Below are positions 1 through 41,110 of a DNA stretch of 64,000 nt, piece after piece. Made by a program: the position numbers and the translations under genes. The DNA is from Gammaproteobacteria bacterium (GTDB taxonomy: Bacteria; Pseudomonadota; Gammaproteobacteria; Competibacterales; Competibacteraceae), in contig JACKMZ010000002.1 in assembly GCA_024235135.1 (NCBI GenBank), forward strand, positions 304,975 to 368,974. Direction: 5' to 3'. The notes under the pieces are model-generated. The model made no database searches. It saw nothing but the letters and a program-made list of their open reading frames with translations, and was not told the DNA's origin. Positions within the stretch are counted from its first letter, which is position 1; the number at the start of each line of letters is the position of its first letter.

Positions 1-204
1 GTTCCACAGAACGATCATGTGTTGCTTGAGAACCTTGTCACTCATTAGCACCAACGAAAATCGCGAATAACAATCGCATGCGACGAGCGGCCCGAATGAG
101 CGGGTATCGATGAGTGTTCGAAACACGGTGCAACAATCCGAATCGAATGGACATGCTTAGAGGAGGTCGCTGCTCATTCGGCTTTGGACAATTAGAGATT
201 TTTT

Positions 205-1014
205 ATGAAACCAGAACGTACCTATCAACATGACTTTTCTGAGTCGAGTCCTGCGATGCATGATGTCGACGGTAGAAAAAGAAAGGCGGCAACAATGGTT
301 GCCGTGCTGAACGATTACTTTGATATTTCTTTACACGACTTGCGTGTGCTCGATGTAGGAGGATCCACAGGAATAATAGATGAGTATCTGTCTAACTACT
401 TTGGTTCAGTTACGGGAATAGATATTGATGAAAAAGCTGTTAACTTCGCATCCAGAACACTGAATAGAGAAAATCTCTATTTTCATCTTGGTGATGCAAT
501 GAACTTGGCAGTTTCCAACGAAATGATTGATGTGGTGATTTGCTCGCAAATTTACGAGCATGTCCCCGATGCCAAGAAAATGATTGATGAGATTTATCGA
601 GTTCTTAGACCGGGCGGTATATGTTATTTTGCAGCATCGAATCGCCTTATGTGGAATGAGCCGCATTACAACCTACCTCTATTGTCGGTAGTTCCGCGGC
701 CCATTGCTCATTGGTATATTCGGTTGGCTGGAAAAGCTGACTTCTATCATGAACTTCATTTTTCTTATTGGGGCTTAAAGAACCTGGTAAAGGCTTTCAA
801 GACAATTGACTATACGCGCAAGGTAGTCGAACAACCGGATCGATTTGGCACGGCCTACATGGTCTCGCCAGGCACCATTAAGGCATGGTTAGCCCGATTG
901 ATCACTGAGTGGGTTTACTGGGCGACGCCTGGATACATTTGGCTGCTTCAAAAGCCCGGTGTATTTGCAGCTCAAAAATGCGTTACAGGTGATGTTTGGA
1001 ATGCTGTTTCCTAG
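205..1014 (+). CDS. Class I SAM-dependent methyltransferase
   Basis: The 269 aa ORF carries motif I (LDVGGSTGIID) and a following acidic motif typical of Methyltransf_11/23 enzymes. It lies in the low-GC region. Confidence 0.65.
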   Translation: MKPERTYQHDFSESSPAMHDVDGRKRKAATMVAVLNDYFDISLHDLRVLDVGGSTGIIDEYLSNYFGSVTGIDIDEKAVNFASRTLNRENLYFHLGDAMNLAVSNEMIDVVICSQIYEHVPDAKKMIDEIYRVLRPGGICYFAASNRLMWNEPHYNLPLLSVVPRPIAHWYIRLAGKADFYHELHFSYWGLKNLVKAFKTIDYTRKVVEQPDRFGTAYMVSPGTIKAWLARLITEWVYWATPGYIWLLQKPGVFAAQKCVTGDVWNAVS

Positions 1015-1027
1015 CGCGTCTAAATGC

Positions 1028-1125
1028 AGCCCAATAGGGTGGGCAACTTGTTGCTCATGGGGTTGACTGTTTCCAGAAGGCGCTTAACCTCATAAGCCCA
1101 GTAAGGTGGGCAATTTGTTGCCTAC
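1028..1125. repeat. Imperfect-palindromic intergenic repeat, about 1.5 copies (cccaatagggtgggcaacttgttgc...ggttgactgtttccagaaggcgcttaacc, then a partial second copy)
   Basis: It is about 85% identical to the element at 3319..3385. It contains a perfect internal palindrome, GGCAAC-TT-GTTGCC. Its outer arms AATAGGG..GCAAC and GTTGC..CCTATT are mutually complementary. Confidence 0.6.
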
Positions 1126-1678
1126 ACGGAATAAAAAGCACCACATACCATTCGGCGTTAGTTCTAATTTGATTTGTAATGCGTACTTCAACGTTCTCTG
1201 CGTGAGTAATAAGTTACTCATCCTACAAAACTGTCGTCGGTGTAATGAACGAAATATATTGGTGTGTGAATAACGTGAATGATGCGCTTCCTTTCGTCAG
1301 CATATCCTACGTGCCACGTGCTTTATTCCCAACAAGTTTAAAAGACGGAACGTAGCAGACCAAATTGGCTGGTTCAAGATGAACCGGCAATGATTCGAAA
1401 TGAACCGCTGGGACTATTGGCGGTGTCGGGCAGGGAAAAAGGAAATAAAAGTCGATGGTTCGCATCCCGTATGCCGGTTAGCCGCCAAAATGCAGGCCGC
1501 CACGTTGGCTGCTTAGCGTCATCTTTTCAAACCTTTTGCGAAACGCTTGGATCGACTAGGTTCGTGCATACCAGAAAAAATGACTTTAAGGTTTTCCGAC
1601 ACGTGCTGACCGCTTGGCATAGTCTATGATTGAGCACATATACGGTGATCGACCGGCTTCCAAAAGGGGGTAATGTGT

Positions 1679-2260
1679 ATGAGATCTTATGAAATACTTG
1701 AGAGCCCGTTTAAGGGTAATAAACTTTCGATAACCAAGTACGTTGTATCCAAAGATGGCAGTGTGGCGGGCGTAAACATCGAGGTTCGCCACGATATCAC
1801 GACGATACCGTCAGGAAAATCATTAAGGTGGGTTCAGACTTTAACGACTAATGCTCCCGAGATTCTCAAGTGCAAATCGTCTTCCGTTGTCGATCCATTT
1901 GGTTCCTGGGACCCCAAGATACATAAAGTATCATTACCCGGCGTCACCAGCGTGTGTAAGGCCGATGACACAAAGCCATTCTATTGGACCGATTCGGAGT
2001 TTGCGACTAACGGGCCGGGTTTTAGCGATACCGCACGCTGGACAACGCCTGCCACAGGGCGTTACTGGTTTCAGTTTATCCTCGGTCTCACTGAAGTCAC
2101 GGGAAAGGATGTGCATCATCTGGTAGCAATTAGTTGGGGATATGATCGAATGGCGGATGGGAGCGTCAGAGTCGCAGCCATTCTCAGAGCTAACTCGGTG
2201 CAAATGAAAAGCCACGGCGCCACATTGAAAAAGTATTACAGTACATACAAATTCACCTAA
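1679..2260 (+). CDS. Hypothetical protein in the low-GC region
   Basis: The ORF is 195 aa. An ATG at 1679 is preceded by a GGGGG ribosome-binding site. I recognise no family. Confidence 0.4.
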   Translation: MRSYEILESPFKGNKLSITKYVVSKDGSVAGVNIEVRHDITTIPSGKSLRWVQTLTTNAPEILKCKSSSVVDPFGSWDPKIHKVSLPGVTSVCKADDTKPFYWTDSEFATNGPGFSDTARWTTPATGRYWFQFILGLTEVTGKDVHHLVAISWGYDRMADGSVRVAAILRANSVQMKSHGATLKKYYSTYKFT

Positions 2261-2439
2261 TAGCGCCTTGAATCATTTAATTAATGGTCTATCCAAAATT
2301 GAGCGAGTGTAATTGAGGCTCGGAAAGCATGACCCGTGGAAATCATAATATGGCCGGTAATCGGAGCTTTGCCGCTCATGTCTGGCCTAAGCCTTTGGAA
2401 AGAACAATGAGCTTATCGCAGCAAAGCAATAGGAGGATT

Positions 2440-3024
2440 ATGTTCCTACGAGTGACAAGTGCTAATCGAGTCAGGACATTGCTGAAAGGGTTGTCAATAT
2501 TACTAATTGTTTTAGCATTGGGAGTCACAGCAGTCATGAATAGCACAGCCTCAGCTCAAGAGGTTAACCACTCTGATTTATCGGCGACGATTGCCGTTCC
2601 GCTACACGATGGGAGTCGGATGATTGATCTTTATTCTCCTGATAACCATTTTCATGTCATCCTATCAAACCACTCCGATACAGTGCTGCATCTTTGGCGA
2701 GAGTGGTGTTCGTGGGGGCATTACAATCTCAGTTTCGAGATAACCGACGAACAGGGGAAGACCTGGATCGTGAGCAAGCAAGACAAGAATTGGACGAAGA
2801 ATTTTCCTGACTTCCTTGAATTGTCTCCTGCGGAAAGCCTGGTGTTTGATGTCAATTTCAATCCGAAGATTTGGAAGGACTCGCCGATTAGTGGCGCTTC
2901 TGGATCGAAAAAAGTAGTCATGCGTGCTATTTATCGAGTCGAAGCATCTGATGAATCCAAGAAAGCCGGCGTTTGGACCGGAGAAATCGCTTCTCCCGCT
3001 CAAGAGTACGTTTTGAATTGGTAA
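2440..3024 (+). CDS. Hypothetical secreted protein (N-terminal signal peptide)
   Basis: The internal ATG at 2440 is preceded by a strong AGGAGG ribosome-binding site. A hydrophobic h-region (LLKGLSILLIVLALGVTAVM) is followed by ASAQE. The ORF caller started 37 codons upstream. Confidence 0.45.
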   Translation: MFLRVTSANRVRTLLKGLSILLIVLALGVTAVMNSTASAQEVNHSDLSATIAVPLHDGSRMIDLYSPDNHFHVILSNHSDTVLHLWREWCSWGHYNLSFEITDEQGKTWIVSKQDKNWTKNFPDFLELSPAESLVFDVNFNPKIWKDSPISGASGSKKVVMRAIYRVEASDESKKAGVWTGEIASPAQEYVLNW

Positions 3025-3318
3025 AATTTTCGGGTTCCCTTGCGCGAAGTGGAAACGCTGTGTCGAAACACCGTGATTTCTAACTGACAAAACGATTCGC
3101 GCTACGGACATAGCCTGACGGGCGGACGAAGCGCCGGCCGCCCGAACGGCTCCGCAAAGTCTTGATCCAGCCTCCAAGCGAGATCGGGCATTATTGCCGG
3201 TTAATATCAGGGAATGGCCCCTTCTTTGCGAAATCCGATAAGGTTGAAACCCATTGGGTGTCTAAGTTTTGTTTCATCTGGCCCACTAGCCTTGTTCTCT
3301 GCAACTTTTCCGCATTTC

Positions 3319-3385
3319 GAGCCCAATAGGGCAGGCAACTTGTTGCCCACGGGGTTGACTGTTTCAAGAAGTTGCTTAACCTATT
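3319..3385. repeat. Second copy of the ~65 bp imperfect-palindromic repeat
   Basis: The sequence gcccaatagggcaggcaacttgttgcccacggggttgactgtttcaagaagttgcttaacctatt aligns with 1028..1094. It sits between two same-strand genes. Confidence 0.6.
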
Positions 3386-3455
3386 AAGTTATAATAGTGG
3401 TAGGGTATTGTACCCTACGATCCACTCAAATTGATCTCGTGGAGGACACACTAAA

Positions 3456-3983
3456 ATGATAGGCTGCTTTAGAAACATTACGGCAATTTCCTTTTGTGTG
3501 CTGATGTCAGCGACGGGCACTGCTATGGGTTTGGACTTTATCCCTTATCCAGAACTTGCAGGAACGATCTGGTTGTCACAACAGCCGCATACCCGGACAG
3601 CAGTCGATACTAAGGGGAACATCGAACATAAAGAAGGAAAGGATATCTACGTTAAGTTTCTGGCGCTGAAGGATGGCGTTTATTCCATAGCAATACACTG
3701 GTGGAATGAGTCGGCCAAGATAAACGTTATGGAATACGGTGTGCTTGTTAAAAGCGCAGAGAACTCCTACACCTATATCGAGGCGGATCATCCGGATGAT
3801 AGCGGATTTCCCGGTATTGCCGGCACCGGCACCTTTGAACTGCTGGATGCATCGACGGCCCAATTTTCACAACTTGGCCGCTTGCTTGACGGTTCGGCTA
3901 GCGCCTTCGTCAATCGTTTGCACAAGGTTTCGGAGGCTCCCACTGTCGAAATTCCCCAAACCTATCCAAAAAAGGCCGAATGA
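3456..3983 (+). CDS. Hypothetical secreted protein
   Basis: A GGAGGA ribosome-binding site lies 9 nt upstream of the ATG. The N-terminal signal-like segment is MIGCFRNITAISFCVLMSATGTAMG. The gene has low-GC codon usage. Confidence 0.45.
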   Translation: MIGCFRNITAISFCVLMSATGTAMGLDFIPYPELAGTIWLSQQPHTRTAVDTKGNIEHKEGKDIYVKFLALKDGVYSIAIHWWNESAKINVMEYGVLVKSAENSYTYIEADHPDDSGFPGIAGTGTFELLDASTAQFSQLGRLLDGSASAFVNRLHKVSEAPTVEIPQTYPKKAE

Positions 3984-4223
3984 GTCAGGGCAAATAAGCT
4001 AAATGAGCAGGGACGATTTTGGGATGGCTTTGCCTTATTTGTCACTAAAAATTTAGCTCATGCTATCGATGCCTTTGGCCTTATTCTCAGGTTATTGCTA
4101 AAGCTTCACGGAAAATAGTTTCTCGGAGAAAATGACTGGAATGATGTACTTCCTCATGTCAGTATATCCTGAATATATTTTCCAGTTATCCACCGTTCCG
4201 TTGGGTCAGGCTCATCTGGGTAA

Positions 4224-4778
4224 ATGAGATTCAAGGGCATTCACCATATTGAACTTTCGGTACTGAACTACGAGGAATCCATTAGGTTTTTCGACAAGAT
4301 GTTTGGCTGGCTTGGATACAAGAGTTTCTGGACGCTGGATATTGGATATCGGTCGACTTATTACATGGCTCGCTTCCCCTTTTTCCACAGCTATATCGGA
4401 ATTCAGCCTGCCGAGACGGGAAGCAAATTGATACCGGCTGATCATGCCGCCGGGATACATCACGTCGCCTTGTGGGCGAAAAACAGACGGGAAATTGACG
4501 ATTTCCACGCGAGTTTTTTGCTAAAGAACAATGTCAACGTGACGGACCCGCCCGCCGAGTATCCGGTCTATACGCCGGGTTACTATGCGGTGTTTTTTGA
4601 TGACCCCATCACGGGGATTCATTTCGAGTTGAGCCATACGCCGTTATGGCCTTCGCTTTCAAGCTATTTTGCATGGATTCGGGCACTGAAAGCCGTTTGG
4701 CGAACGCATCCCGAATGGAAGGCGCCACCTTGGAAAGAGGCGATGCGGAAGTTGCCCTCAAGGCGCGACCCAACTTGA
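4224..4778 (+). CDS. VOC/glyoxalase-bleomycin-resistance family protein
   Basis: An N-terminal 'GIHHIELSV' segment and a second 'GIHHVALW' segment are typical of the tandem βαβββ modules in the VOC superfamily. Confidence 0.5.
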   Translation: MRFKGIHHIELSVLNYEESIRFFDKMFGWLGYKSFWTLDIGYRSTYYMARFPFFHSYIGIQPAETGSKLIPADHAAGIHHVALWAKNRREIDDFHASFLLKNNVNVTDPPAEYPVYTPGYYAVFFDDPITGIHFELSHTPLWPSLSSYFAWIRALKAVWRTHPEWKAPPWKEAMRKLPSRRDPT

Positions 4779-4866
4779 CCATGGATCGCAGCCGACCGTT
4801 TTGTTTATGCCCTAACGCAACGGGCGTGGCTGCTTGAGCGATACGAGCGAGGAACCGCTCGGTTCC

Positions 4867-6018
4867 TCAATCGATATAACGGGGTTTATTGTAGAAACCG
4901 GCCATCAGATTGATTTCAGTGTGAACGCCGCCAAACAGATCGGCCAGCTCCTCGAAAGTCATTTCCCCGCTTTCTTGACGACCTACCAAGACCACCTCGT
5001 CTCCCCATCGAACATCTCCGGATAGGTCGGTGATGTCAATGGTCGTTACGTTGAGTGATACGCGGCCAACGACAGGGCAGCGTTGGCCGTTGATCAGCAC
5101 GATTCCCTTGTTGAACAGCCCGCGCGGATAACCTTCTCCAAAACCGACGGGTACGGTGGCGATACGGCTGGGGCGGGTCGTCTTGTAGAGGCTGCCATAG
5201 CCGATGGTCCGGCCTTCGGGCACGTCGCGGATTTCCATGATCCGCGTCTTAATGCTCATGACCGGCCGCAGCTCGGGTGGATTGGAAAAATGGCTGGATG
5301 TCCTCACCCCGTAACAAGCGGCTCCGACCCGCACCATTCCGCCACGAAGCTCCGGCAGGCGCATGCTCGCGGCGCTGTTGTGGCTGTGTACGAGGACATC
5401 CTTTGGCAACACGGATTCAAGCGACGACATCGTTTCGCGGAACTGTTCGAGTTGGTCCCGTGTCGAGCCGAGGTCCGTGCCGTCGGCCGACGGTAAGTGC
5501 GTCATGACGCCCCGCACCCGCAGCCCGTCCATGCCGCAAACGGCGGTCATTCCGGCTTGATCGTCGGCGAGAAATCCGGTGCGGCCCATCCCGGTATCGA
5601 TTTTGATATGCACGGGTACCGGGCTGCTACGGCGTCGCCCATGGCCCGCGAGGAACTCCGCCACCGCGACGGAACCCACCATTTCTTCCACATGGAGTTG
5701 CGTTACCGACTCTTCCAATTCGTCAGGGAGCGCGGTGCGCAGACGTAATATGGGATGAGAGGGATGACGCCGCCTGATCGTCGCCGCTTCGTCGTTGGTG
5801 CAAATGCCCAGGTAATCGGCGCCGGCCCCGATGGCGGAATCAAGCAGATGTTCCAGGCCGTGACCATAAGCGTTGGCTTTCATCACCACGCAAATTTTCG
5901 CTGGCGCGAGGCTTTGACGAAGAAAGTGGATATTGTCGGCAAACGCCGACCGCGAAATTTCAACCTGGATGTGTTTTTGCTGGGCATTCATGGCGATCTG
6001 CAACGTTCGGGATGACAC
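4867..6018 (-). CDS. alr: Alanine racemase
   Basis: The ORF is 383 aa. It carries the PLP-lysine motif 'VVMKANAYGHG' and has the overall length and conserved blocks of alanine racemases. Confidence 0.8.
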   Translation of the reverse strand: MSSRTLQIAMNAQQKHIQVEISRSAFADNIHFLRQSLAPAKICVVMKANAYGHGLEHLLDSAIGAGADYLGICTNDEAATIRRRHPSHPILRLRTALPDELEESVTQLHVEEMVGSVAVAEFLAGHGRRRSSPVPVHIKIDTGMGRTGFLADDQAGMTAVCGMDGLRVRGVMTHLPSADGTDLGSTRDQLEQFRETMSSLESVLPKDVLVHSHNSAASMRLPELRGGMVRVGAACYGVRTSSHFSNPPELRPVMSIKTRIMEIRDVPEGRTIGYGSLYKTTRPSRIATVPVGFGEGYPRGLFNKGIVLINGQRCPVVGRVSLNVTTIDITDLSGDVRWGDEVVLVGRQESGEMTFEELADLFGGVHTEINLMAGFYNKPRYID

Positions 6019-6183: not shown

Positions 6184-8031
6184 CTAAAGCTCCGATACGT
6201 GCAGTTTGCGCAACATGACCTTGCGCTTGTATTGGTGAGTGTCCATGCGCGCCAGAATCCCACTCAGGAAATTCACCGTTTCGACGATGTACGGTCCTTT
6301 GTTGAGCATGGCGCATTCGGCGCGGCTGCTCATGGCCGCATCGGTGATTTCAGCGCGTGAAGGCGAACCGCGCTTGACCAGCCCTTCCAACATTTGCGTG
6401 GCCCAGATTACCGGCACATGGGCCGCTTCACACAGCCACAGGATTTCTTCCTGCACTTCGGAAAGACGGTCGAAACCCATTTCCACCGCAAGATCGCCAC
6501 GCGCCACCATGACGCCGACCGGCGGGGAACGCAGACTGGCCAGGAGAATGCGCGGCAGATTCTCGAAAGCTTGACGGTTTTCGATCTTGAGCACGATGCC
6601 CAGATGACCGCCACCCAGGCGATGCAGATGATCCTCCAGGATCAATACGTCCTCGGCGTTGCGTAGAAAGGACAAGGCCACCATGTCCACATACTTCACG
6701 ACATGGGCCAGATCGGCGATGTCCTTGTCGGTCAGCGCGGACATGCGCAACTCGGTATCGGGGAAATTGATGCCTTTCTCCGCCCGCAGCTTGGCTCCGC
6801 TGGGACCGGTGTGGGTGATCTGCACGGTGATTCGCTCACCGTCGTTGGCTTTGACGATGCCCCCGATCTTGCCATCGTCGAACCATACGCTTTCACCGGC
6901 CTTGGCGTGATCGAAGGCGGTTTCCAGGGTGCAATGAATTTGCGCCGGCGTGATGACCTGCCCGGCATCGTCGCGTTCGGCATCGTGGCCCGGCTCGTCG
7001 GCGCGGGTCAGAATCAGGGTTTCGCCGGGAAACAGATTCAGCGGCGCGGATACCTCCGGCAGCGGGCCGATCGTTCCCTCGCCGATGAATTCCTCATCCC
7101 GGTACAGTTGAACCAGTCCGCCGCCCGGCGCGTATACCGTGCGGTCGATTTGCGCCACACGGGAATCGCCAATGGCCAGAATGATGGACAAACGGCGATG
7201 CCGATCGCGGGAATCCTGCATGCGCAGTTCGTCGCCAACCCGGCTGAGCGCCAGCAATTCCTGACTGATCGGCAGCACGCTTTCGACCTCGTCCGGCGCC
7301 GGTTGCGGATTTTCGGTCGGCGTCAGCCAGAGTTGGCCGGGTGTCACGGTGCGCCCCAAGGCGTCGCGTTGCGGACGGGTGCGGCGCATTTGCCCTAACG
7401 CCATGATCGGACCTGTGCGCAGCTTGGGGCCGCCTAAGTCGGCTTGTACTTTACAGGTGCGGCCGACTACCCGCTCCGCCCGGCGCAGGTTGTCCACCAT
7501 CGCTTTCCAGTCGTCCGGACTGTCATGGGCGCAGTTGATGCGCATCACGTCCATGCCCGCCGTCAGCAGGTTTTGAATCAGTTGCGGATCGCGGGCGGCT
7601 TCGCTGGGCATGGTCACCATGATGCGCACCGAGCGATTGACCGGGTCCGGCCCTAGCAACGCACGGGTATGGTCGCGCAGCAACAGCGGGCCGGTGCGAA
7701 AATCGACAGGCGGCTCCGGAATCGGGTTGCCGGGCTTGCCGGTCAATTGTTCCAGCAGGCTCAGCACCGCGTTCAGGGTGTACAGCGTATGGGCCTCCAG
7801 CACGCCCAACGAAGAGAGGCCCAGCGATGCCAGATCCCGCTGCAGATTGCGCACGTCGTGCTGGCGCACGCTGAGATAGTGCAACAGGTTGCGGGCGCTG
7901 TTGCGGTACGCGGGTTCCACCTCATCCAATTCGGCGGCGAGAGAGTTTTCCAACTGGAGCGCACCTTCCCGCAAGGAGAGCAACGGCGGGATCAGACGTT
8001 CCAACATGCGATGAGTGGCGTGCAGTGTCAT
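6184..8031 (-). CDS. Pyruvate kinase family protein with an N-terminal extension of about 140 aa
   Basis: It matches the PK signature 'LGIVLKIENRQAF'. 'MRINCAHD' fits the NxSHG-type motif. 'VMVARGDLAVEMG' fits the active-site block. At 615 aa it is about 140 aa longer than canonical PykF/PykA. Confidence 0.65.
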   Translation of the reverse strand: MTLHATHRMLERLIPPLLSLREGALQLENSLAAELDEVEPAYRNSARNLLHYLSVRQHDVRNLQRDLASLGLSSLGVLEAHTLYTLNAVLSLLEQLTGKPGNPIPEPPVDFRTGPLLLRDHTRALLGPDPVNRSVRIMVTMPSEAARDPQLIQNLLTAGMDVMRINCAHDSPDDWKAMVDNLRRAERVVGRTCKVQADLGGPKLRTGPIMALGQMRRTRPQRDALGRTVTPGQLWLTPTENPQPAPDEVESVLPISQELLALSRVGDELRMQDSRDRHRRLSIILAIGDSRVAQIDRTVYAPGGGLVQLYRDEEFIGEGTIGPLPEVSAPLNLFPGETLILTRADEPGHDAERDDAGQVITPAQIHCTLETAFDHAKAGESVWFDDGKIGGIVKANDGERITVQITHTGPSGAKLRAEKGINFPDTELRMSALTDKDIADLAHVVKYVDMVALSFLRNAEDVLILEDHLHRLGGGHLGIVLKIENRQAFENLPRILLASLRSPPVGVMVARGDLAVEMGFDRLSEVQEEILWLCEAAHVPVIWATQMLEGLVKRGSPSRAEITDAAMSSRAECAMLNKGPYIVETVNFLSGILARMDTHQYKRKVMLRKLHVSEL

Positions 8032-8140: not shown

Positions 8141-8986
8141 TCAGGAGGACTTTTTACCGTCCCGGTCGGCCAGTATCTCCCGCGCTTGTTGCGCCATGGC
8201 GACGAGTGTCGGACGTAACTGGCTGGCGTCGGTCAAAGCGGACGCGAAGCCGATCCGTATCCGTTCGCGACGCCCATCGCCGGCGCACAGCATGTTGAAG
8301 CCGAAGCGGTCCACGCTGGTCATGCGGCATTCGCTTGCCCAGTCCCGGTCGGCGAATGCGCGGGCGTAGTCGCACAGATTTTGCCCGTGGTCCGCATTCA
8401 TGTGGGCCAGTGCGCTGGCGGCGATGGCGCTGAGCGGATCGGGCGCGGCTTGGGCATAGTCCGTGGCTTCCAGCCAGCCCATACGACCGAAACCCGCGAT
8501 GAATCGCACCCGCTCGACTTGCAGGCAAAAGAAATTGAAATCGGAGAAATCGATGTACTGGCTGGCCTGGGGGTGCTTGACGAGATAATCCGCGCGATAA
8601 CGTAGGCGGTCATCGACTGGGGTTGCCTGGCCTAGCAGTGTCAGACGGTTCTCGGCTAACTGATCCACACCGTCCATTCCGGGCGCTATCAACAACGAGG
8701 CACGCGGATCACGGCTCAGATACTTCCGATGTTCGGCCAGATCGCTTAACAGCAGCACGATGTTTCCGTTGATCAAAGGCAGATAGTCCACCACCGAGCC
8801 ATAAGGGTAACCGTCGTCGCTGCGCAGCGTGCTCAATACGCCGTGAGCCTGTGTCGCGACCAAGGTGCGGGCCGCTTCGCTCAAGGGAGGTAAGGCGGTG
8901 TTTCTCGCCACGGGACGATCCTCTGCTCCGCTGGGGGCTGTCAGGTTGAAGAGGGCGATTGTACAACGATCGGCGAGGTATCCCAT
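8141..8986 (-). CDS. HugZ-like / pyridoxamine-5'-phosphate-oxidase-related FMN-binding protein with a DUF2470-like C-terminus
   Basis: The N-terminal block 'HGVLSTL..DGYPYGSVVDY' is a split-barrel block seen in HugZ-family proteins. This is recognised from memory of the family, not from a search. Confidence 0.45.
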   Translation of the reverse strand: MGYLADRCTIALFNLTAPSGAEDRPVARNTALPPLSEAARTLVATQAHGVLSTLRSDDGYPYGSVVDYLPLINGNIVLLLSDLAEHRKYLSRDPRASLLIAPGMDGVDQLAENRLTLLGQATPVDDRLRYRADYLVKHPQASQYIDFSDFNFFCLQVERVRFIAGFGRMGWLEATDYAQAAPDPLSAIAASALAHMNADHGQNLCDYARAFADRDWASECRMTSVDRFGFNMLCAGDGRRERIRIGFASALTDASQLRPTLVAMAQQAREILADRDGKKSS

Positions 8987-9011: not shown

Positions 9012-10193
9012 TCACAGCGTCGCTAGATAATTCACCACGGATTCCAGGCTGGCCACGTTATGGGCGGGAGCCAGCAGGTCGAGTAGCGGTAGAACGTCTC
9101 GCAGGACGTCTTCGTCGGGATCGTGGTCATCCCTGCCCAGCATCGGGTTGAGCCACAGCAGGCGTTTGGCCCGTTGGCGGAGTACGCTCAATGCGGCGAC
9201 CAGGGCTTCGGGGTGATCGGAGTCGAAACCATCGCTCATGATGATCACGATGGAACGGGAATCGATCAAACGCCGGCCGAACTGCCGATTGAACTGATAC
9301 AGCGAATCGGCGATCCGTGTGCCGCCCATCCACAAGGGCGCCAAACGTTCCAGCCGTTTGCGCAAGGTGTCGCTGTCGGTTTGCCGGAACAGATCGGTGA
9401 CGCGGTGCAGTTGGGTGTGGAACAAAAAGGCTTCCGCTTCCGGCAGCGTCAGCACTAGGCCGCGCGTAAAGCGCGCCAGCAACTCGCTGTAGCGGGCCAT
9501 CGAATGGGAGATATCCAATATCAGCACCAGACGCGGCAATTGTCGCTTGCGCTCGCGATATGCGGGCTTTAGCGGCAGGCCGCCATAGGCCAGACTCTTG
9601 CGCAGGGTGCGCCGCAAGTGAATTTTCCGGCCACGATTGAGACAACGTTCCCGGCGCATTAGCCGTTGCCGCATGAGCCTGGCCAGACGCTCGGCTAATT
9701 GCGCCATAGCCTGCATTTCACCGCGTTCGGTCAGAAAGCGGAAATCGATCCGCGTCAGGGCTTTTTGCCGGCCCGCGCCACCTCCCTTGGGTTCGTCGTC
9801 AGCCTCGCCTTGGGGAAGCTCGGCTTCGGCGTGGCTTAAACCGGTGACCCCCTGATTGCGATTGCCGCGTGGGATTCGCGGGTCACGGCGGCGGCGCTGT
9901 TGCTCGGCTTGGATGACCCGCTGCGGATGCCAGAATTGCTCGAACAGGAGGTCGAAACGCCGCCATTCATCGAGCGATCGACAAAGCAGATGGCGGAGCC
10001 CATCACGTAGGTAGGATTCGTCCAGCAGATTGCCCAGTGTGGCGAGTCGTAAACTATCCAGCGTTTCCTGGATGCCCACGCCGTATCCGTGCCCGCGCAG
10101 GAAACTCACGAAATCCTGTATGCGGTTCGCCGGTGACTGATCGTTCCGTAGGCTGCTCGGCTGGCCGGATTGCGAAGCACCCTGGTCCATCAA
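9012..10193 (-). CDS. VWA-domain protein, CoxE-like
   Basis: It has the 'VLILDISHSM' MIDAS-like start of a VWA domain and the 'VIIMSDGFDSD' block typical of the CoxE/VWA_CoxE family. It overlaps the upstream MoxR gene by 4 bp, which suggests an operon. Confidence 0.7.
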   Translation of the reverse strand: MMDQGASQSGQPSSLRNDQSPANRIQDFVSFLRGHGYGVGIQETLDSLRLATLGNLLDESYLRDGLRHLLCRSLDEWRRFDLLFEQFWHPQRVIQAEQQRRRRDPRIPRGNRNQGVTGLSHAEAELPQGEADDEPKGGGAGRQKALTRIDFRFLTERGEMQAMAQLAERLARLMRQRLMRRERCLNRGRKIHLRRTLRKSLAYGGLPLKPAYRERKRQLPRLVLILDISHSMARYSELLARFTRGLVLTLPEAEAFLFHTQLHRVTDLFRQTDSDTLRKRLERLAPLWMGGTRIADSLYQFNRQFGRRLIDSRSIVIIMSDGFDSDHPEALVAALSVLRQRAKRLLWLNPMLGRDDHDPDEDVLRDVLPLLDLLAPAHNVASLESVVNYLATL

Positions 10194-11071
10194 GTCAGCG
10201 GGGCCATCAGCGTGGCCAGGAAGGGGCCATCGACCCGACCTAGATCTTCCTGAGTTTTCAGCAAGGACCCCAGGGTATCCCGGAGGATCTGAGGATCGTC
10301 ATCGAGTTTTCGAATATCGAGACTCAACAAAGCCACGGCCCAATCCAGGGTTTCCGCGATGCCCGGTTTCTTACGCAAATCCGTGGCCCTGAGCCGGTGG
10401 ACGAACTGAACGATTTGTGCCGCCAAATGCTCGTCGATATGCGGTAAGCGCCGGTTGACGATGGCCAGTTCCTTGCCAATGTCCGGGTAATCGAGATAGT
10501 GAAACAGGCAACGGCGGCGCAGCGCATCGCTCAGTTCGCGGGCGCCGTTGGACGTGAGTACGACGTAAGGGATGCTGCGCGCCTTGATGGTGCCCAATTC
10601 CGGGATGCTGATCTGAAAATCCGATAACACTTCCAGCAGATACGCTTCGAAGGCTTCGTCGGCGCGATCGACTTCATCGATCAGCAGCACCGGCGACTGT
10701 TCCTGGGTAATGGCTTTGAGCAAGGGGCGCGGCAGTAGGAAACGCTCGCTGAAAATCTCCGCCTCTTTGCGTGCGGGCTCGTACCCTGCCTGCTCATGAA
10801 GCTTCAAGGCCAGCAGTTGATGGGGGTAATTCCATTCGTAGACGGCGGCATTGGCATCCAGCCCTTCATAGCATTGCAGGCGGATCAGCGAGCAGGTGAA
10901 AGCTTCCGACAAAGCCTGGGCCACCGCCGTTTTACCGACGCCGGCATCGCCTTCCAGCAGCAACGGCCGACCGAGCCGGACCAGCAACATCAGCGCCGTC
11001 GCGAGAGAACGGTCGGCGATATAGCCGACCTGCTCCAACTGGTTCTGCAAAATGGAAATTTCTGCTGTCAA
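10190..11071 (-). CDS. MoxR-family AAA+ ATPase, CoxD-like
   Basis: It carries the Walker A motif 'LLEGDAGVGKT' and the Walker B motif 'LLIDEVDRA'. At about 293 aa it has the MoxR/AAA_3 architecture. Confidence 0.8.
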   Translation of the reverse strand: MTAEISILQNQLEQVGYIADRSLATALMLLVRLGRPLLLEGDAGVGKTAVAQALSEAFTCSLIRLQCYEGLDANAAVYEWNYPHQLLALKLHEQAGYEPARKEAEIFSERFLLPRPLLKAITQEQSPVLLIDEVDRADEAFEAYLLEVLSDFQISIPELGTIKARSIPYVVLTSNGARELSDALRRRCLFHYLDYPDIGKELAIVNRRLPHIDEHLAAQIVQFVHRLRATDLRKKPGIAETLDWAVALLSLDIRKLDDDPQILRDTLGSLLKTQEDLGRVDGPFLATLMAPLT

Positions 11072-11263
11072 AGCTTGCTCATATCACAGCATGGCGGCGT
11101 GCCGGCCGGACCAGAGTACAACCATGAAAATAATGGGTCTTACCAATTCGCAAGATTAGTGTGTATGTTCTAATTTTAGTGAATAGGATACGTGCCAATA
11201 AAATTTCGCACAGCAAGCTTTGATGCATATCAAACGATCAGGGATCGCCCAGGGGGATTCGCC

Positions 11264-11446
11264 ATGAACAGGAGCCAAAACAGTTATTACCCCTTCATTT
11301 GGTTTGATCGGGGAGGCTGGTGGTTCAAGGCCTACGATGAGTGCTTTGGACCTTACGAACACGCTGCAGATGCGCGCTACAGTCTGTCTGTACTTCAGCA
11401 ATTGAGTCGTCAATTGCGTGATGAGCTGCGCTCTCACCATTCTTGA
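11264..11446 (+). CDS. Small hypothetical protein (60 aa)
   Basis: The ATG is preceded by a GGGGGA ribosome-binding site. A strong terminator hairpin follows about 100 bp downstream. I recognise no homology. Confidence 0.25.
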   Translation: MNRSQNSYYPFIWFDRGGWWFKAYDECFGPYEHAADARYSLSVLQQLSRQLRDELRSHHS

Positions 11447-11547
11447 TGGCCTGTCGCGGGTAACGAATCACTAGTAAAACGATAACTCCCAGGCCATATA
11501 GCCGATTGCCCGCTTGTCGCTAGGGGGCTACCTGCCCCTAGTCGTAG

Positions 11548-11584
11548 CCAACAACAGCCCGCAAGGGCTGTTGTTGTTTTCGAG
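11548..11584 (+). terminator. Rho-independent terminator-like hairpin (ccaacaacagccc-gcaa-gggctgttgttg, then TTTTCG)
   Basis: A perfect 12 bp GC-rich stem with a tetraloop is followed by a U-tract. It lies in the ~250 nt leader upstream of metH. Confidence 0.5.
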
Positions 11585-11703
11585 GATGCCATTCCCCCCC
11601 GACCCATTGGCGGCTCAGGATTGCGCCGATGGGTCAATCCGTACAGAATCCTGTTCCGAACCCCGATCATTCAAAATTCCAGCAAACCGAGCGAGTTTGA
11701 TCC

Positions 11704-14700
11704 ATGAACAATGAACGCATCGCCCAACTCAAGAGAATCCTGGAAGAACGCATTGTGATTCTGGATGGCGCCATGGGCACCATGATCCAGGGTTACAAGC
11801 TGACCGAAGGCGATTACCGGGGCGAGCGTTTCCGCAACTGGCCCAGCGATCTCAAGGGCAACAACGATTTGCTGGTGCTCACCCAACCCGACGTGATCCG
11901 CGAGATTCACACCGCCTATCTGAAGGCCGGCGCGGACATCATCGAGACCAACACCTTCAATTCCACCGCCATTTCGATGGCGGATTACCGCATGGAGGAA
12001 CTGGTTTACGAGTTGAATCTAAGCGCCGCGCGACTGGCTCGGGAGGCGGCCGACGCCGTGGCCCAGGCGACCGGCCAGCCGCGTTTCGTGGCCGGGGTGT
12101 TGGGGCCGACCAATCGGACCTGTTCGCTGTCGCCGGATGTGAACAATCCGGGATTTCGCAACGTCAGCTTCGCCGAACTGGTCGCCACTTACAGCGAGGC
12201 GACCCGTGCGTTGGTGGAAGGCGGCGCCGATGTGCTGCTGGTGGAAACCATTTTCGATACGCTGAACGCCAAGGCGGCCCTGTTCGCCATCATGCAATAT
12301 CGCGAACAAAATGGCGTGGACATCCCCATCATGATTTCGGGGACCATCACCGATGCTTCGGGCCGTACCCTGTCCGGCCAAGTGACCGAAGCCTTCTGGA
12401 ACTCGGTCCGCCATGCCGAGCCGCTGAGCATCGGTTTGAATTGCGCGCTCGGCGCGGCGCAACTGCGCCCGTATGTCGAGGAATTGTCGCGCATCGCGGA
12501 TACTCTTGTCTCGGCCCATCCCAATGCCGGCCTGCCTAACGAATTCGGGGAATACGACCAGGGCCCCGAGGAAATGGCCCTGATTATCCGTGAGTTCGCC
12601 GAGTCGGGTTTCGTTAACATCATCGGAGGTTGCTGCGGCACCACGCCGGCGCATATCCGCGCGATCGCCGAGGCGGTGCGCCGCCTCCCGCGCCGCGATA
12701 TTCCCGAGATTCCCCGACAGTGCCGTTTGTCGGGTCTGGAGCCCTGCAACATCGGTCTCGATTCGCTGTTCGTGAATGTCGGCGAACGCACCAATATCAC
12801 CGGTTCGGCTAAGTTCCGGCGCTTGATCAAGGCCGACGATTACAGCGCGGCCCTGGATATCGCCCGCCAGCAGGTGGAAAACGGCGCGCAGGTCATCGAC
12901 GTCAACATGGACGAAGGCATGCTGGATTCCGAGCAGGCCATGACCCGTTTTCTCTATCTCGTGGCCGCCGAACCGGACATTGCGCGGGTGCCGGTGATGA
13001 TCGATTCCTCCAAATGGTCGGTGATCGAGGCGGCGCTGCAATGCGTGCAGGGCAAATCGGTGGTCAATTCCATCAGCCTCAAGGAAGGCGAGGAAGCTTT
13101 CATCCATCATGCCAAGCTGGTGCGTCGCTACGGCGCGGCCGTCATCGTCATGGCCTTCGACGAAAGCGGTCAGGCCGATACCCGCCAGCGCAAGATCGAG
13201 ATTTGCCAACGCTCCTATCGAATACTCACCGAGCAGGTCGGTTTTCCCGCCGAGGACATCATTTTCGATCCCAATATCTTCGCGGTCGCCACCGGCATCG
13301 AGGAACACAACAACTATTCGGTGGATTTCATCGAGGCGACGAGAGAAATCAAGCGCACCCTGCCGCACGCACTGATTTCCGGTGGCGTGTCCAATGTGTC
13401 CTTCTCGTTCCGTGGCAACGACGCCGTGCGCGAAGCCATGCATTCGGTGTTTCTCTATCACGCCATTCAGGCGGGCATGGACATGGGCATCGTCAATGCC
13501 GGGCAGTTGGCCATTTACGAGGAAATCCCCCTGGAACTGCGGGAACGGGTCGAGGACGTCATCCTCAATCGCCGTCTGGATGCTACCGAGCGGTTGCTGG
13601 AGATCGCCGAGTCCTATAAAGGCGGCGGTACCCAAACCAAGAAGGAGGATCTGGCCTGGCGAGAATGGCCGGTGGCCAAACGCCTGGCACATGCCCTGGT
13701 CAAGGGAATCGACGAATATATCGAGAGCGACGCCGAGGAAGCCCGCCAGCGGGCGGAACGGCCGCTGCACGTGATCGAAGGGCCGTTGATGGACGGGATG
13801 AACGTAGTCGGCGATCTGTTCGGAGCCGGCAAGATGTTCTTGCCGCAGGTCGTGAAATCGGCGCGGGTCATGAAAAAAGCCGTGGCGCATCTGATCCCTT
13901 TTATCGAGGCGGAAAAAGCCGAAGGCGAGAAATCCCGCTCCAACGGCAAAATCGTCCTGGCCACGGTGAAAGGCGATGTGCACGACATCGGCAAGAACAT
14001 CGTCGGTGTGGTGCTTCAGTGCAACAACTTCGAGGTATTCGATCTCGGGGTGATGGTGCCGGCGCAAAAGATTCTCGATACCGCGCGGGAGGTCGGAGCC
14101 GACATGATCGGCCTGTCCGGTCTCATCACCCCGTCCTTGGACGAGATGGTGCACGTGGCCAAGGAGATGGACAGGCAGGCGTTTTCCCTGCCTTTGCTGA
14201 TCGGCGGGGCGACGACTTCGCAGATCCACACGGCGGTGAAAATCGATCCGCAATACGAACAGGCCGTGGTCTACGTCAAGGATGCCTCGCGCGCCGTCGG
14301 GGTGGCGCAAAATCTGATCAGCGAGACGTCGCGGGCGGACTACACGGCCCGCATCAAGGCCGATTACGTAGCCAAGCGCGAACAGCACAAGAATCGCCGC
14401 AGCCGGGAAGCCTCATTGACGCTGGACGAGGCGCGCGCCAACAAACCGGCTATCGACTGGCCGGCCTACGCGCCGACTCGGCCCCGGTTTCTGGGGGGGC
14501 TGACCCTGGCCGACTATCCATTGGAGGAACTGGTCGAACGCATCGACTGGACGCCGTTTTTCCAGACCTGGGAATTGCGCGGGCGTTTCCCCAAGATTCT
14601 CGACGACGAGACCGTCGGCGAGCACGCCCGCCAGCTATACCGGGATGCGCAAGCCATGCTGGAACGGGTGATCGAGGAAAAATGGCTGATCGCGCACGGC

Positions 14701-19444: not shown

Positions 19445-20440
19445 ATGGCTAGTGCAGATCAATTAAAGGCGCTTCTAAAGTCGCATCTTGAGGGCGATAA
19501 CGAGCGATTTTTTTCCGTGGCGATGCAGGTAGCGGCGCACGAAGCAAAGCTAGGCCATGGCCGGCTAGCGGTAGAGTTGCGGGCCTTGATTGACCAAGCT
19601 AAGGCGCGTCGGGGGATGCCGCCGCAAGTTAGCGACAGGGCGATTCCTATCAGCCGCCCTCGCGGCGAACTGGTGGGATTACTCTCAGTAAGCTATCCGA
19701 AGGCGCGCCTCGGGGAAATGGTGTTGGATGACATCCTGTCGAGTCAGCTCAATCGAATCATCAAGGAACAGCGTCAGGCATCGCAAATTCTCGCTCACGG
19801 TTTGAATCCGAGAAGAAAATTGTTGCTGATGGGGCCACCGGGTACCGGAAAGACGATGACCGCATCGGTACTTGCGGGCGAATTAGGTTTGCCGTTGTTC
19901 CAAGTGCGTCTTGACGGGTTGATCACCAAGTATATGGGTGAGACTGCCGCCAAATTGCGGCAGGTATTTGAGGCAACAGACCGCACGCGGGGCGTGTATT
20001 TCTTTGATGAATTTGATGCCATTGGATCACAGCGTGGTCTGGTGAATGATGTCGGTGAGGTTCGACGGGTCTTGAATAGCTTCCTGCAGATGATCGAGCA
20101 GGATGAGTCCCACAGCCTGATCGTAGCGGCGACCAATCATCCCGAGATTTTGGATCACGCATTGTTTCGCCGCTTCGACGACGTGTTGCACTACGGGTTG
20201 CCGGATGAGCGCCATATAGCCGCGATGCTCAAGTCCCGCCTTGGGCGGATGGCGGCCAAAGGCGTTTCATGGACGCGGCTTGCTAGTGGGGCTGTCGGTC
20301 TGAGCTACGCTGAAGTGGCGCGCGCGTCGGACGACGTGCTGAAGGAGGCATTGATTGAGGATCGCAAGGAAATTACAGAAGAGGACATTCTGCAGGCGTT
20401 GCAGGAAAGGCTGCGGATCATAGAGCGACTCAAGTCGTGA
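19445..20440 (+). CDS. Classical AAA ATPase (IetA-like)
   Basis: It has the Walker A motif 'LLMGPPGTGKTMTA' and the Walker B motif 'VYFFDEFDAIG', with second-region-of-homology features. At 331 aa it is a single AAA module. Confidence 0.8.
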   Translation: MASADQLKALLKSHLEGDNERFFSVAMQVAAHEAKLGHGRLAVELRALIDQAKARRGMPPQVSDRAIPISRPRGELVGLLSVSYPKARLGEMVLDDILSSQLNRIIKEQRQASQILAHGLNPRRKLLLMGPPGTGKTMTASVLAGELGLPLFQVRLDGLITKYMGETAAKLRQVFEATDRTRGVYFFDEFDAIGSQRGLVNDVGEVRRVLNSFLQMIEQDESHSLIVAATNHPEILDHALFRRFDDVLHYGLPDERHIAAMLKSRLGRMAAKGVSWTRLASGAVGLSYAEVARASDDVLKEALIEDRKEITEEDILQALQERLRIIERLKS

Positions 20441-20459
20441 TAACGAAAGATTCTGGGAA

Positions 20460-39928: not shown

Positions 39929-40081
39929 GTTAATATTCTCCCGGCCAAACCCATGTAACCATTTTGCTGCAGTGCAAAAGAATTATTGACAAGGAGTTTG
40001 GGCCGCGTCACAATGTTGTTTATGGTGCACTGCACAAAAAATGTTATTCATAAGATCGTACCTTGTTTGGAGATCATATAG

Positions 40082-40582
40082 ATGAACGATAAAACCAATC
40101 CCTTCAATCCGTTTGCCAATTTCGATTTCAGCAGCTTCGACGTCAACAAGTTGCTGGATGTCAACAAGTTGCTGGACGTCAATAAAATGTTCGCCGATAT
40201 GCGGATGCCGGGTTTCGACATCAATGCTTTGATGTCCACGCAGAAAAAAAATATCGATGCGCTGAACGCCGCCAACAAGAAGGCTGTGGAAAGTATACAG
40301 GCCATTGCCAAGCGGCAGGCGGAAATCATGGCGCAGACCATGGCCGAGGTATCCACTTCCGCGCAACAACTCGCCAATGTCGCCACCCCTCAGGAAATGA
40401 CGGCCAAACAGGCCGAGGCCGTGAAACAAGCTTTTGAAAAGGCGCTGGCCAATATGCGCGAACTCGCGGAAATGATCAGTCAGGCCAATACGGCGACCTT
40501 CTCGATTCTCAACCAACGCGTCGCTGAAAATATCGAAGAATTGAAGGGTTTGATGCCTCAGTCGGAAGCCAAGAAATCCTAA
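40082..40582 (+). CDS. Phasin-family (PHA granule-associated) protein
   Basis: It is a low-complexity, Ala/Gln-rich, amphipathic protein with a phasin-like N-terminus. It contains a 3x 18 bp in-frame tandem repeat (FDVNKLLDVNKLLDVNKMF) at 40139..40192. Confidence 0.6.
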   Translation: MNDKTNPFNPFANFDFSSFDVNKLLDVNKLLDVNKMFADMRMPGFDINALMSTQKKNIDALNAANKKAVESIQAIAKRQAEIMAQTMAEVSTSAQQLANVATPQEMTAKQAEAVKQAFEKALANMRELAEMISQANTATFSILNQRVAENIEELKGLMPQSEAKKS

Positions 40583-41110
40583 ATCCTGAACTTCTCCTAA
40601 TCAGCCGCCTAGGCGAGGTTATCTGACGATCCATGCCTGGCCGGGGGGGCGATAGAGCCCGACAGGACTTCCGCTGCGTGCTAATTGTCGCGGAAGTCCG
40701 GGGTATCGATTAATGCCGTTCTCCCTTCCTTCCTCTCTCCAGTTCGTCTCAATTACAATCCGGAAGGCTCGTCGGCGCGAGTCCATCTGTGGCCGGGCTT
40801 GCTTTTGTGGGCGCGCGTTTAAGCTTGATCGGTATAACACGGCATCGTGTTAATTTCTGATAGTTTCTGTCAACAATTGAATAAATTAGCTAAAATATAA
40901 ATTCAAGCATTGATCAGGATTCAGGTTGGATCTACGGCCCCGCAATGAACTTTAGCGGGGTCCAAGAAGCAGCAGGATAACCAGGTGATTTATGAATCGG
41001 CCGGTGCTGCGGGACGGTGACACCGGTTTGATGGACTAGCCGCCATCCTTAACCATATTTTTTCCTACTCCACGGAATTTGCTGCGGTTGCTTTCGATCG
41101 CGGGCAACGG

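Follow-up and report, generated by a model that had tools for sequence, protein, structure and literature searches.

Probable decayed REP elements as the palindromic repeats of an integrase-less, integron-type cassette island in a Competibacteraceae genome

Cassette arrays without an integrase (CALIN) form a category that was reportedly defined by IntegronFinder, in work by Cury et al. from 2016. The integron integrase IntI cuts between G and TT of the R′ core of an attC site, so that each cassette begins with bases of its own attC, which pair with the R″ core of that site. Repetitive extragenic palindromic (REP) elements are recognized by other features: a GTAG tetranucleotide plus a palindrome, inverted doublets, and a gene for a REP-associated tyrosine transposase (RAYT, or TnpAREP) bordered by the same element together identify a REP/REPIN system, and the GTAG matters for RAYT binding or cleavage (PMC8266576). 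Here we analyze a stretch of 64,000 nucleotides from a Competibacteraceae genome (assembly GCA_024235135.1, contig JACKMZ010000002.1, positions 304,975 to 368,974 of the forward strand), referred to as the window. Its first 4.9 kb contain a palindromic repeat of about 65 bp, which an earlier note on the sequence had likened to REP elements, to miniature inverted-repeat transposable elements (MITEs), and to attC-like recombination sites. We estimate a probability of roughly 75% that these repeats derive from a widespread REP family and have decayed, and that they are situated inside an integrase-less, integron-type cassette island that is CALIN-like.

The repeat is real: it occurs in the window as two full copies (1028-1096 and 3320-3388) that are 87% identical over 69 nt, where about 85% had been estimated, and as a partial copy (1095-1121, within a repeat span of 1095-1132) that shares 89% identity with copy 1 across 27 nt. 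The core reads (G)TAGGGTGGGCAAC-TT-GTTGCCCAC, and searching for GGGCAACTTGTTGC with up to two mismatches returns only these three sites in 64 kb (chance expectation, 0.63; 0 of 100 shuffles reach four). The central palindrome GGCAAC-TT-GTTGCC, which had been called perfect, is so in copy 2 only; there, copy 1 has ...GTTGCT and the partial copy has GGCAAT....

Each full copy is a REPIN-like doublet on the plus strand. Doublet 1 (1028-1096) consists of a left REP at 1030-1065 and a decayed right arm, which in an ungapped comparison agrees with the inverted REP consensus at only 11 of 23 positions. Doublet 2 (3320-3388) consists of a left REP at 3322-3357 and a right arm at 3362-3384 (TTTCAAGAAGTTGCTTAACCTAT) that, scored in the same way, agrees at 15 of 23 positions (P ~ 0.0025). 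What had been described as a half copy is a REP singlet (1097-1132, plus strand) with GTAA in place of GTAG; the 27-nt partial match exists, but the singlet probably has a right-hand partner of its own, a decayed inverted REP at 1204-1226 (plus strand) matching 17 of 23 consensus positions. Only four positions in the window score at least this well on the inverted consensus, and the other three are the REPs themselves. A mini-palindrome at 3396-3419 (no strand assigned), GTAGGGTA-ttg-TACCCTAC, resembles a REP with its center deleted, and the fold of 3318-3422, which spans copy 2 and this palindrome, has a z score of −5.2. A pattern specific to the 65-bp variant of the window, GTTGCYCAYGGGGTTGACTGTTTC, found no match in the metagenome scan.

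To place the repeat among known elements, one genome per species was scanned for TAGGGYRGGCAAC-N2-4-GTTGCYCA. At least 120 stretches matched, in at least about 67 assemblies; the taxa and proportions that follow hold among the matches listed. Most matches are from Betaproteobacteria (Burkholderiales, Methylophilaceae, Gallionellaceae, Rhodocyclaceae, and Neisseriaceae) and many are from Gammaproteobacteria (Competibacteraceae, Parabeggiatoa/Thiotrichaceae, and Cardiobacteriaceae), while a few are from metagenome-assembled genomes of other phyla; mis-binning could explain such outliers, which carry the labels Phormidium, Planctomycetota, Desulfatirhabdium, and Brevundimonas. Many assemblies hold several matching contigs, which indicates that the element is a dispersed repeat in those genomes.

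Because the scan pattern derives from the window repeat, independent support for a REP family comes from conserved positions that the pattern did not force, from doublet architecture, and from adjacency to RAYT genes. At the unforced positions, G precedes TAG in 111 of 114 cases, giving GTAG, and C follows CCCA in 113 of 114, usually with GCG after it. An inverted partner (...TGCCCACCCTAC) lies within 260 nt of 59 of 125 non-palindromic sites, compared with 8 in the control, and the modal length of the doublets is 70 to 78 nt. A gene of about 182 amino acids (aa) is flanked on both sides by inverted motifs in two loci (L092 and L102) and adjoined by the motif in two others (L011 and L114); the proteins of L011, L092, and L102 score 189 to 197 bits on NCBIfam model NF047646 (REP-associated tyrosine transposase; cutoff, 80). 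The family shares with E. coli REP/BIME, Pseudomonas fluorescens REPINs, and Stenotrophomonas maltophilia REPtrons a GTAG placed directly 5′ of a short GC-rich palindrome. As in REP/REPIN and RAYT systems generally, it often occurs in inverted doublets of about 70 nt, borders RAYT genes (on both sides in some loci), and is multicopy in its carrier genomes and absent from viral contigs, in which the REP core found no match. Literature searches for the core string returned nothing relevant.

Three further observations concern the family at large. The 23-nt REP core GTAGGGTGGGCAAC-NN-GTTGCCCAC recurs, among the matches listed, across several orders of Beta- and Gammaproteobacteria (L006-L125); to our knowledge, a single REP sequence is not usually described over so broad a range. 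At L011 (1448-2180), a canonical attC (GCCTAAC...GTTAGGC) has a REP no more than about 12 nt downstream, then a RAYT gene, and then an inverted REP, which puts a RAYT unit directly at a cassette boundary. A general linkage between REPs and attC sites was considered and rejected: of 149 REPs among the matches listed, only 5 are preceded by GTTRRRY at a distance of up to 22 nt.

We then scored the locus itself with a covariance model (R1) built from 94 sites of other genomes. No sequence from the window went into the model, nor did any from L001 (assembly GCA_024235075.1, contig JACKNA010000003.1), a contig that encodes the same methyltransferase protein as the window and equals window positions 1-4287 at its positions 9797-14083 with 1 mismatch. 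In the window, R1 scores the left REP of doublet 2 (3322-3357) at 34.5 bits (E = 4 × 10−6), that of doublet 1 (1030-1065) at 34.0 bits (E = 5 × 10−6), the singlet at 14.7 bits (E = 0.17), and the mini-palindrome, weakly, at 8.6 bits; nothing else in the 64-kb window (the other 59 kb) is significant. On L001, it scores 52.7 bits at 8940-8975 (E = 1.9 × 10−10) and 38.5 to 39.5 bits at 7456-7495 on either strand (E = 2 to 4 × 10−7). Both of these upstream copies (7456-7493 and 8940-8975) are consensus-perfect with an intact GTAG, at 7460 and 8944, respectively. Together with the doublet architecture and the RAYT adjacency seen in other genomes, these scores support the REP reading of the repeat.

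The copies of this genome are distributed unevenly. All lie between L001 position 7454 and window position 3419, a stretch of about 5.8 kb, and there are none in the other ~63 kb examined. The possibility that the repeat is a ubiquitous, genome-wide REP is therefore upheld in one respect, since the family is widespread across genomes, but not in the other: within the ~74 kb examined here, no copy lies outside the island. This confinement, the lack of a RAYT gene in the same ~74 kb, the ATAG or GTAA of the window copies, and their decayed right arms set the locus apart from the described REP/REPIN systems.

The repeats lie in DNA of distinct composition. GC content in 1-kb windows is 0.447 to 0.490 over positions 1-5000 and 0.55 to 0.65 over most of the remaining window, and the mean is 0.458 for the island versus 0.587 for the rest. 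GC content at third codon positions (GC3) is 0.38 to 0.60 in 12 island genes and 0.68 to 0.77 in 15 host genes; these ranges are disjoint (Mann-Whitney P = 1 × 10−5), and GC3 is 0.49 in window 1-4866 versus 0.72 elsewhere. The low-GC character claimed for this segment is thus borne out; the shift at its right border, described as abrupt, is in fact gradual (0.51 to 0.56 over 4400-5000), and the island properly ends where its last cassette does, at about 4850-4866. On L001, aceE and aceF (GC content, ~0.60) precede the island, and GC content falls to 0.39 to 0.51 from position 4031, directly past the aceF terminator. Because it falls there and remains low, we place the left end at L001 4031, outside the window as had been supposed. 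The whole island, from L001 4031 to window 4866, measures 10,632 bp and lies between aceF and alr; by composition and by the match to L001, window positions 1-4866 (no strand assigned) are the right-hand 4.9 kb of it.

The upstream part of the island encodes, all on the plus strand, a RibD_C protein, a 218-aa open reading frame (ORF) that overlaps a Dam-family methylase gene and possibly encodes a restriction enzyme, HigB with its antitoxin, a glyoxalase, and a DUF3592 protein. The restriction-enzyme-like ORF with the Dam-family methylase, HigBA, two VOC enzymes, and methyltransferases are cargo typical of cassettes. Composition, GC3, and gene content agree in supporting the view, already expressed in the earlier note, that the island DNA was horizontally acquired. 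No tRNA gene that could serve as an integration site was found in the window, in L001, or in the loci of the methyltransferase homologs. Rfam gave no relevant match for the window at gathering thresholds or for the island at E ≤ 1. An empty aceF-alr junction was sought through alr homologs of about 70% identity (L128 and L129), which share no synteny with this locus.

Four units of the island carry the signature of integron cassettes, a start that is the exact reverse complement (8/8) of the unit's own R″. Three are on L001: an ORF-less unit (start GTTAGGTT at 4320; R″ AACCTAAC at 4553), a RibD_C cassette (start GTTATAAG at 4796; R″ CTTATAAC at 5391), and a cassette of the restriction-enzyme-like ORF plus the Dam methylase (start GTTATGCC at 5454; R″ GGCATAAC at 7280). 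The fourth is the VOC cassette of the window, which starts with the R′ core GTTGGGTC (GTTRRRY; 4200-4207, plus strand), the exact reverse complement of the R″ core GACCCAAC at 4767-4774. That R″ opens a degenerate terminal attC (4767-4866, plus strand), without a clean hairpin and with no R′ found, which forms the right border of the island. In a test limited to single ORFs, the 8/8 signature is present for 2 of 13 island ORFs versus 12 of 1,757 (0.7%) ORFs from unrelated loci (Fisher P = 0.004) and for 1 of 165 ORFs in flanking host DNA; the two-gene and ORF-less units are additional to the 2 of 13.

Canonical attC structures accompany these boundaries. The attC at L001 4553 (extending to 4680, plus R′) has the R″ ACCTAAC, the spacer AATTG, and two bulged bases in its L arm (TTT-C-AACCTG-T-CAACGC); the z score of the fold is −4.5 as found and −7.8 once an inserted module, D1 (described below), is removed in silico. 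A second attC follows RibD_C at L001 5391-5461 and has one bulged G. A possible remnant of an attC 5′ half (R″-like GAATAAC, spacer AATCG) at window 66-77 on the plus strand is a weak match, and no partner R′ was found for it. Taxon-specific attC covariance models have been published as a supplement (PMC8352920). A stricter version of our own hairpin scan yielded no candidate in the window and one in L001.

With attC sites present and no integrase found at the locus, the island fits an integrase-less attC cluster. Like a CALIN, it consists of small, same-strand, accessory genes that mostly look promoterless; its attC hairpins have R″ and R′ cores, spacers, and bulged bases; its cassette starts are exactly complementary to their own R″; and no intI was found nearby. 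It is unlike a CALIN in that only 4 of its ~11 units keep the signature, that the middle is broken up by REP relics and duplicated modules, that 116 nt are inserted directly ahead of R′ in two attC sites, and that the terminal attC is degenerate. The seven units without the signature are those in the middle (HigBA, VOC1, DUF3592, the methyltransferase, and hypothetical proteins 1 to 3); REP relics lie between them, as do two further duplicated modules, a 78-nt repeat and a 46-nt repeat. The term "cassette-like" suits the island, given the canonical attC sites and exact boundaries upstream and around the last window gene, but the repeats themselves are very probably not attC sites.

Several results weigh against reading the repeats as REP relics in a cassette island. 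The scan pattern was built from the window repeat, and its matches are alike by construction. GTAG is intact in none of the three window copies (ATAG at 1033 and 3325, GTAA at 1100), and it is homology, with the motif incomplete, that assigns them to the REP family. Within the ~74 kb of this genome examined, neither a RAYT gene nor a REP copy outside the island was found. On the integron side, only the four units named above, of ~11, show the cassette signature, and a rule-based scan for attC hairpins (AAC...GTT plus arm complementarity), which proved too unspecific, showed no enrichment in the island, with 2 candidates versus ~1 per control chunk. The upstream flank, where the earlier note had proposed to look for an intI or other recombinase, has no such gene and no tyrosine recombinase among the genes called in 10 kb. 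Nor did a scan of 27 window ORFs, comprising the five island genes plus 22 others of 256 to 615 aa, reveal an integron integrase.

Could the 65-bp repeats themselves be attC sites, that is, folded single-strand sites at which the integron integrase excises and inserts the intervening genes? The genes are small, cassette-like, and on one strand, the repeats lie downstream of them, GTTATAA directly after copy 2 comes near to GTTRRRY, and true attC sites are present elsewhere in the island. The structure of the repeat nonetheless makes this very improbable. An attC carries RYYYAAC and GTTRRRY at its ends, whereas the cores of the repeat, GGGCAAC and GTTGCCC, stand 2 nt apart at the center of the hairpin and its ends read AATAGG and CCTATT. 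The outer stem (AATAGG...CCTATT) runs into the inner stem almost continuously, with only a 2 × 2 internal loop, no unpaired spacer of ~5 nt, and no single bulged bases. The units bounded by the repeats (the methyltransferase and hypothetical proteins 1 to 3) have no complementarity between start and end beyond the self-match of the palindrome. In other genomes, the same core borders RAYT genes, and in L011 it stands beside a canonical attC (GCCTAAC-CTATC-GCT-C-AACCGG-A-CC...GGCCGGTTAGC-TCGAAC-GTTAGGC, followed by the REP and the RAYT gene) and not in place of one; because both stand side by side there, attC and REP are separate kinds of site. The attC-like interpretation in the earlier note is therefore not supported for the repeat.

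Two other explanations accept or dispense with the REP family. The repeats might be the host's own REPs, genome-wide and still mobile, which inserted after the island arrived and say nothing of its origin. In favor of this, the host belongs to the Gammaproteobacteria, in which, as in Betaproteobacteria, the family is common, and two L001 copies (8940-8975 and 7456-7493) are perfect to the consensus with GTAG intact. We consider this unlikely in view of five to six copies within 5.8 kb of the island versus zero in ~63 kb of flanking host DNA, and of the degeneration of the window copies at the GTAG that is needed for binding or cleavage (PMC8266576); copies also sit inside duplicated island modules (a REP followed by the 78-nt repeat), which suggests spread by segmental duplication. 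Alternatively, the likeness to REPs might be convergent, the repeats being local structural or regulatory hairpins (terminators or mRNA stabilizers) or a conventional MITE with terminal inverted repeats. The good fold of 3318-3422 and a location downstream of genes would suit a 3′-end hairpin, but there is no T-tract, a terminator scan leaves the main hairpins unflagged, and no target-site duplication is visible. Moreover, 20 to 22 of 23 core positions and the doublet architecture are common to the family in at least about 67 assemblies; since identity and architecture are shared to this extent, they point to homology and not convergence, and we give this explanation hardly any credence.

If the repeats are REP relics, their history can be sketched from other systems. 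The REP unit comprises GTAG, one G, and a 9-bp hairpin (GTGGGCAAC/GTTGCCCAC), is often set in inverted, REPIN-type doublets of ~70 nt, and in other genomes borders the genes of RAYTs, which are HUH/Y1 enzymes. Following what is published for other REPtrons, a RAYT would recognize GTAG on the folded single strand to which it binds, and would cut and religate the DNA beside the hairpin, the process by which REPs multiply. Because the window copies have ATAG or GTAA for GTAG and right arms only 48 to 65% consensus-like, they are most likely immobile relics; they are probably no longer substrates and would now serve at most as intergenic hairpins. The 10.6-kb island inserted between aceF and alr would be an integron-type cassette array, four units of which keep the IntI G|TT signature, and it may have been assembled by an integrase that acted in trans or has since been lost.

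Both the element that left the relics and the island that holds them are thus of kinds already known, and the question of REP or attC is settled to this extent: the palindromic repeats are probable REP relics, and the genuine integron sites are elsewhere in the island. Annotators should not define cassettes from these repeats. Two single-strand-hairpin systems, RAYT/REP and IntI/attC, stand side by side in one acquired island, which also illustrates how a cassette array decays once an integrase is absent. The occurrence of one REP core in dozens of assemblies from several proteobacterial orders bears on how REPs and RAYTs spread.

The island contains a second structured element. A 130-nt repeat on L001 (4194-4323 and 4670-4799; 94% identical) folds into a perfect hairpin and, after it, a multibranch structure that a 14-bp stem closes. 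Within it, the conserved module D1 is about 116 nt long; the strands GATACGCCGGCG/CGCCGGCGTATC form its hairpin, GGCCCGAATGAGCG/CGCTCATTCGGGCC close its multibranch structure, and the loop GAATCGA is invariant. When metagenomes were scanned for the closing stems, four more copies were identified, all directly before GTT, which brings the full copies to six on five contigs from different samples: L001 4204-4319 and 4680-4795, L135 4-129, L136 1758-1884 (minus strand), L137 523-650 (minus strand), and L138 869-995. A model (R2) built from these six, none of which is in the window, detects a decayed copy at window 92-181 (plus strand; 33.8 bits, E = 1.5 × 10−4) that lacks the first hairpin and has TTT for the downstream GTT; this is its sole match in the window, and there is none in 698 kb of other loci. 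The alignment shows a few compensatory changes. D1 found no match in 72,556 plasmids (blastn), in Rfam, or in viral contigs, its stems found none in literature searches, and it appears to be previously undescribed.

The position of D1 is exact. GTT follows directly after 6 of 6 full copies, and both copies on L001 end at ...GGGCC|GTT, the start of the next cassette; the one at 4680-4795 sits between the 3′ spacer of an attC and its R′. Three full copies (one on L001 and two of L135 to L138) are preceded by canonical attC 5′ parts of unrelated sequence. In three copies, the GTTNNNNN after D1 is exactly complementary to an 8-mer with which the next cassette ends, and in L137, the next attC opens 346 nt further along with TGGCTAAC, the exact complement of the GTTAGCCA after D1. 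The copy on L136 is some 65 nt away from a Tn3-family transposon, beyond its inverted repeat, and no canonical attC 5′ half was recognized there. That transposon (L136 1945-6322) encodes a Tn3-family transposase (1,007 aa) and a tyrosine recombinase (435 aa) and ends about 65 nt from D1, with a GGGG... sequence resembling a terminal repeat between the transposon genes and D1.

Known elements that target attC insert near its 5′ end, on the antisense strand (PMC3001079). Like the IS1111-attC group (ISPa21, ISPst6, and ISKpn4) and group IIC-attC introns, D1 recurs in one orientation at one position in different attC sites; unlike them, it is only about 116 nt long, is noncoding, and lies at the attC 3′ end, before the GTT of R′. 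We tentatively suggest, as a possibility we hold at less than even odds, that D1 is an undescribed nonautonomous element or accessory structure that occupies one exact attC position, the junction between the 3′ unpaired spacer and R′, directly 5′ of the IntI crossover G|TT. Because D1 folds wholly on itself and so joins its ends, the attC around it could perhaps still function. A mobile D1 would add a third kind to the elements that target attC, with possible effects on the excision or expression of cassettes.

Two shorter repeats mark the middle of the island. The 78-nt repeat D5 lies at window 1237-1314 (plus strand) and, 92% identical, at L001 8979-9056, in both cases just downstream of a REP copy, an arrangement that points to segmental duplication within the island. 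A 46-nt repeat (D4) occurs three times on L001 (7499-7544, 8421-8466, and 9092-9137; 76% identical), 74 to 160 nt upstream of HigB, the glyoxalase gene, and DUF3592, and resembles a −35/−10 promoter module. Its candidacy as a promoter module was dropped when a consensus scan flagged only one of the three copies.

All five plus-strand genes assigned to the window segment by the earlier note are confirmed. They follow the 3′ end of the DUF3592 gene (window 1-48, plus strand; L001 9218-9844) and comprise a class I S-adenosylmethionine-dependent methyltransferase gene (205-1014; Pfam Methyltransf_11, 79 bits, E = 4 × 10−22), three genes for hypothetical proteins without a Pfam or NCBIfam match (1673-2260; 2329-3024, with a hydrophobic N-terminal segment; and 3456-3983, with a signal-peptide-like N terminus), and the VOC/glyoxalase-family gene carried as a cassette (4224-4778; Pfam Glyoxalase/VOC, E = 8 × 10−5). 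The first host gene past the island is alr (4867-6018, minus strand; Pfam Ala_racemase_N and Ala_racemase_C; GC3, 0.68), and a pyruvate-kinase-like gene comes next.

Homologs of two of the island genes are found in other settings. Those of the methyltransferase gene (L131 10001-10807, L133 9947-10771, and L134 555-1376) have 74 to 76% nucleotide identity, over the coding sequence only; of their three unrelated settings, two, a prophage-like contig and a P4-like element, place the gene directly beside a phage-type integrase. The gene has evidently moved by more than one route, and it behaves as a gene-sized mobile unit independent of integrons. VOC homologs with 75 to 84% identity occupy ordinary, noncassette settings. 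Neither the contexts of the methyltransferase homologs (with phage-type, not integron, integrases) nor those of the VOC homologs (ordinary metabolic) show an integron link. The VOC protein of the window parts from its homologs exactly at the C-terminal tail, where the gene enters R″ (KLPSR|RDPT*); the attC R″ core supplies the codons for its final four residues, RDPT* (4764-4778), and the homologs end differently past the shared ...KLPSR. This tail may be a trace of the conversion of the gene to a cassette.

Two places outside the island also depart from the composition of their surroundings. At window 19445-22976, a subtilase (Peptidase_S8) that is split into two ORFs (20460-21707 and 21900-22976) comes after an AAA ATPase gene, and GC content is lower, at 0.53 to 0.55, over the 19- to 25-kb region around these genes; the stretch may be another acquired or defense-type module with a disrupted gene. 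An isolated dip in GC content to 0.495 occurs at 40001-41000, where two small, identical hairpin-like matches (40144-40153 and 40162-40171) have weak scores on the REP model.

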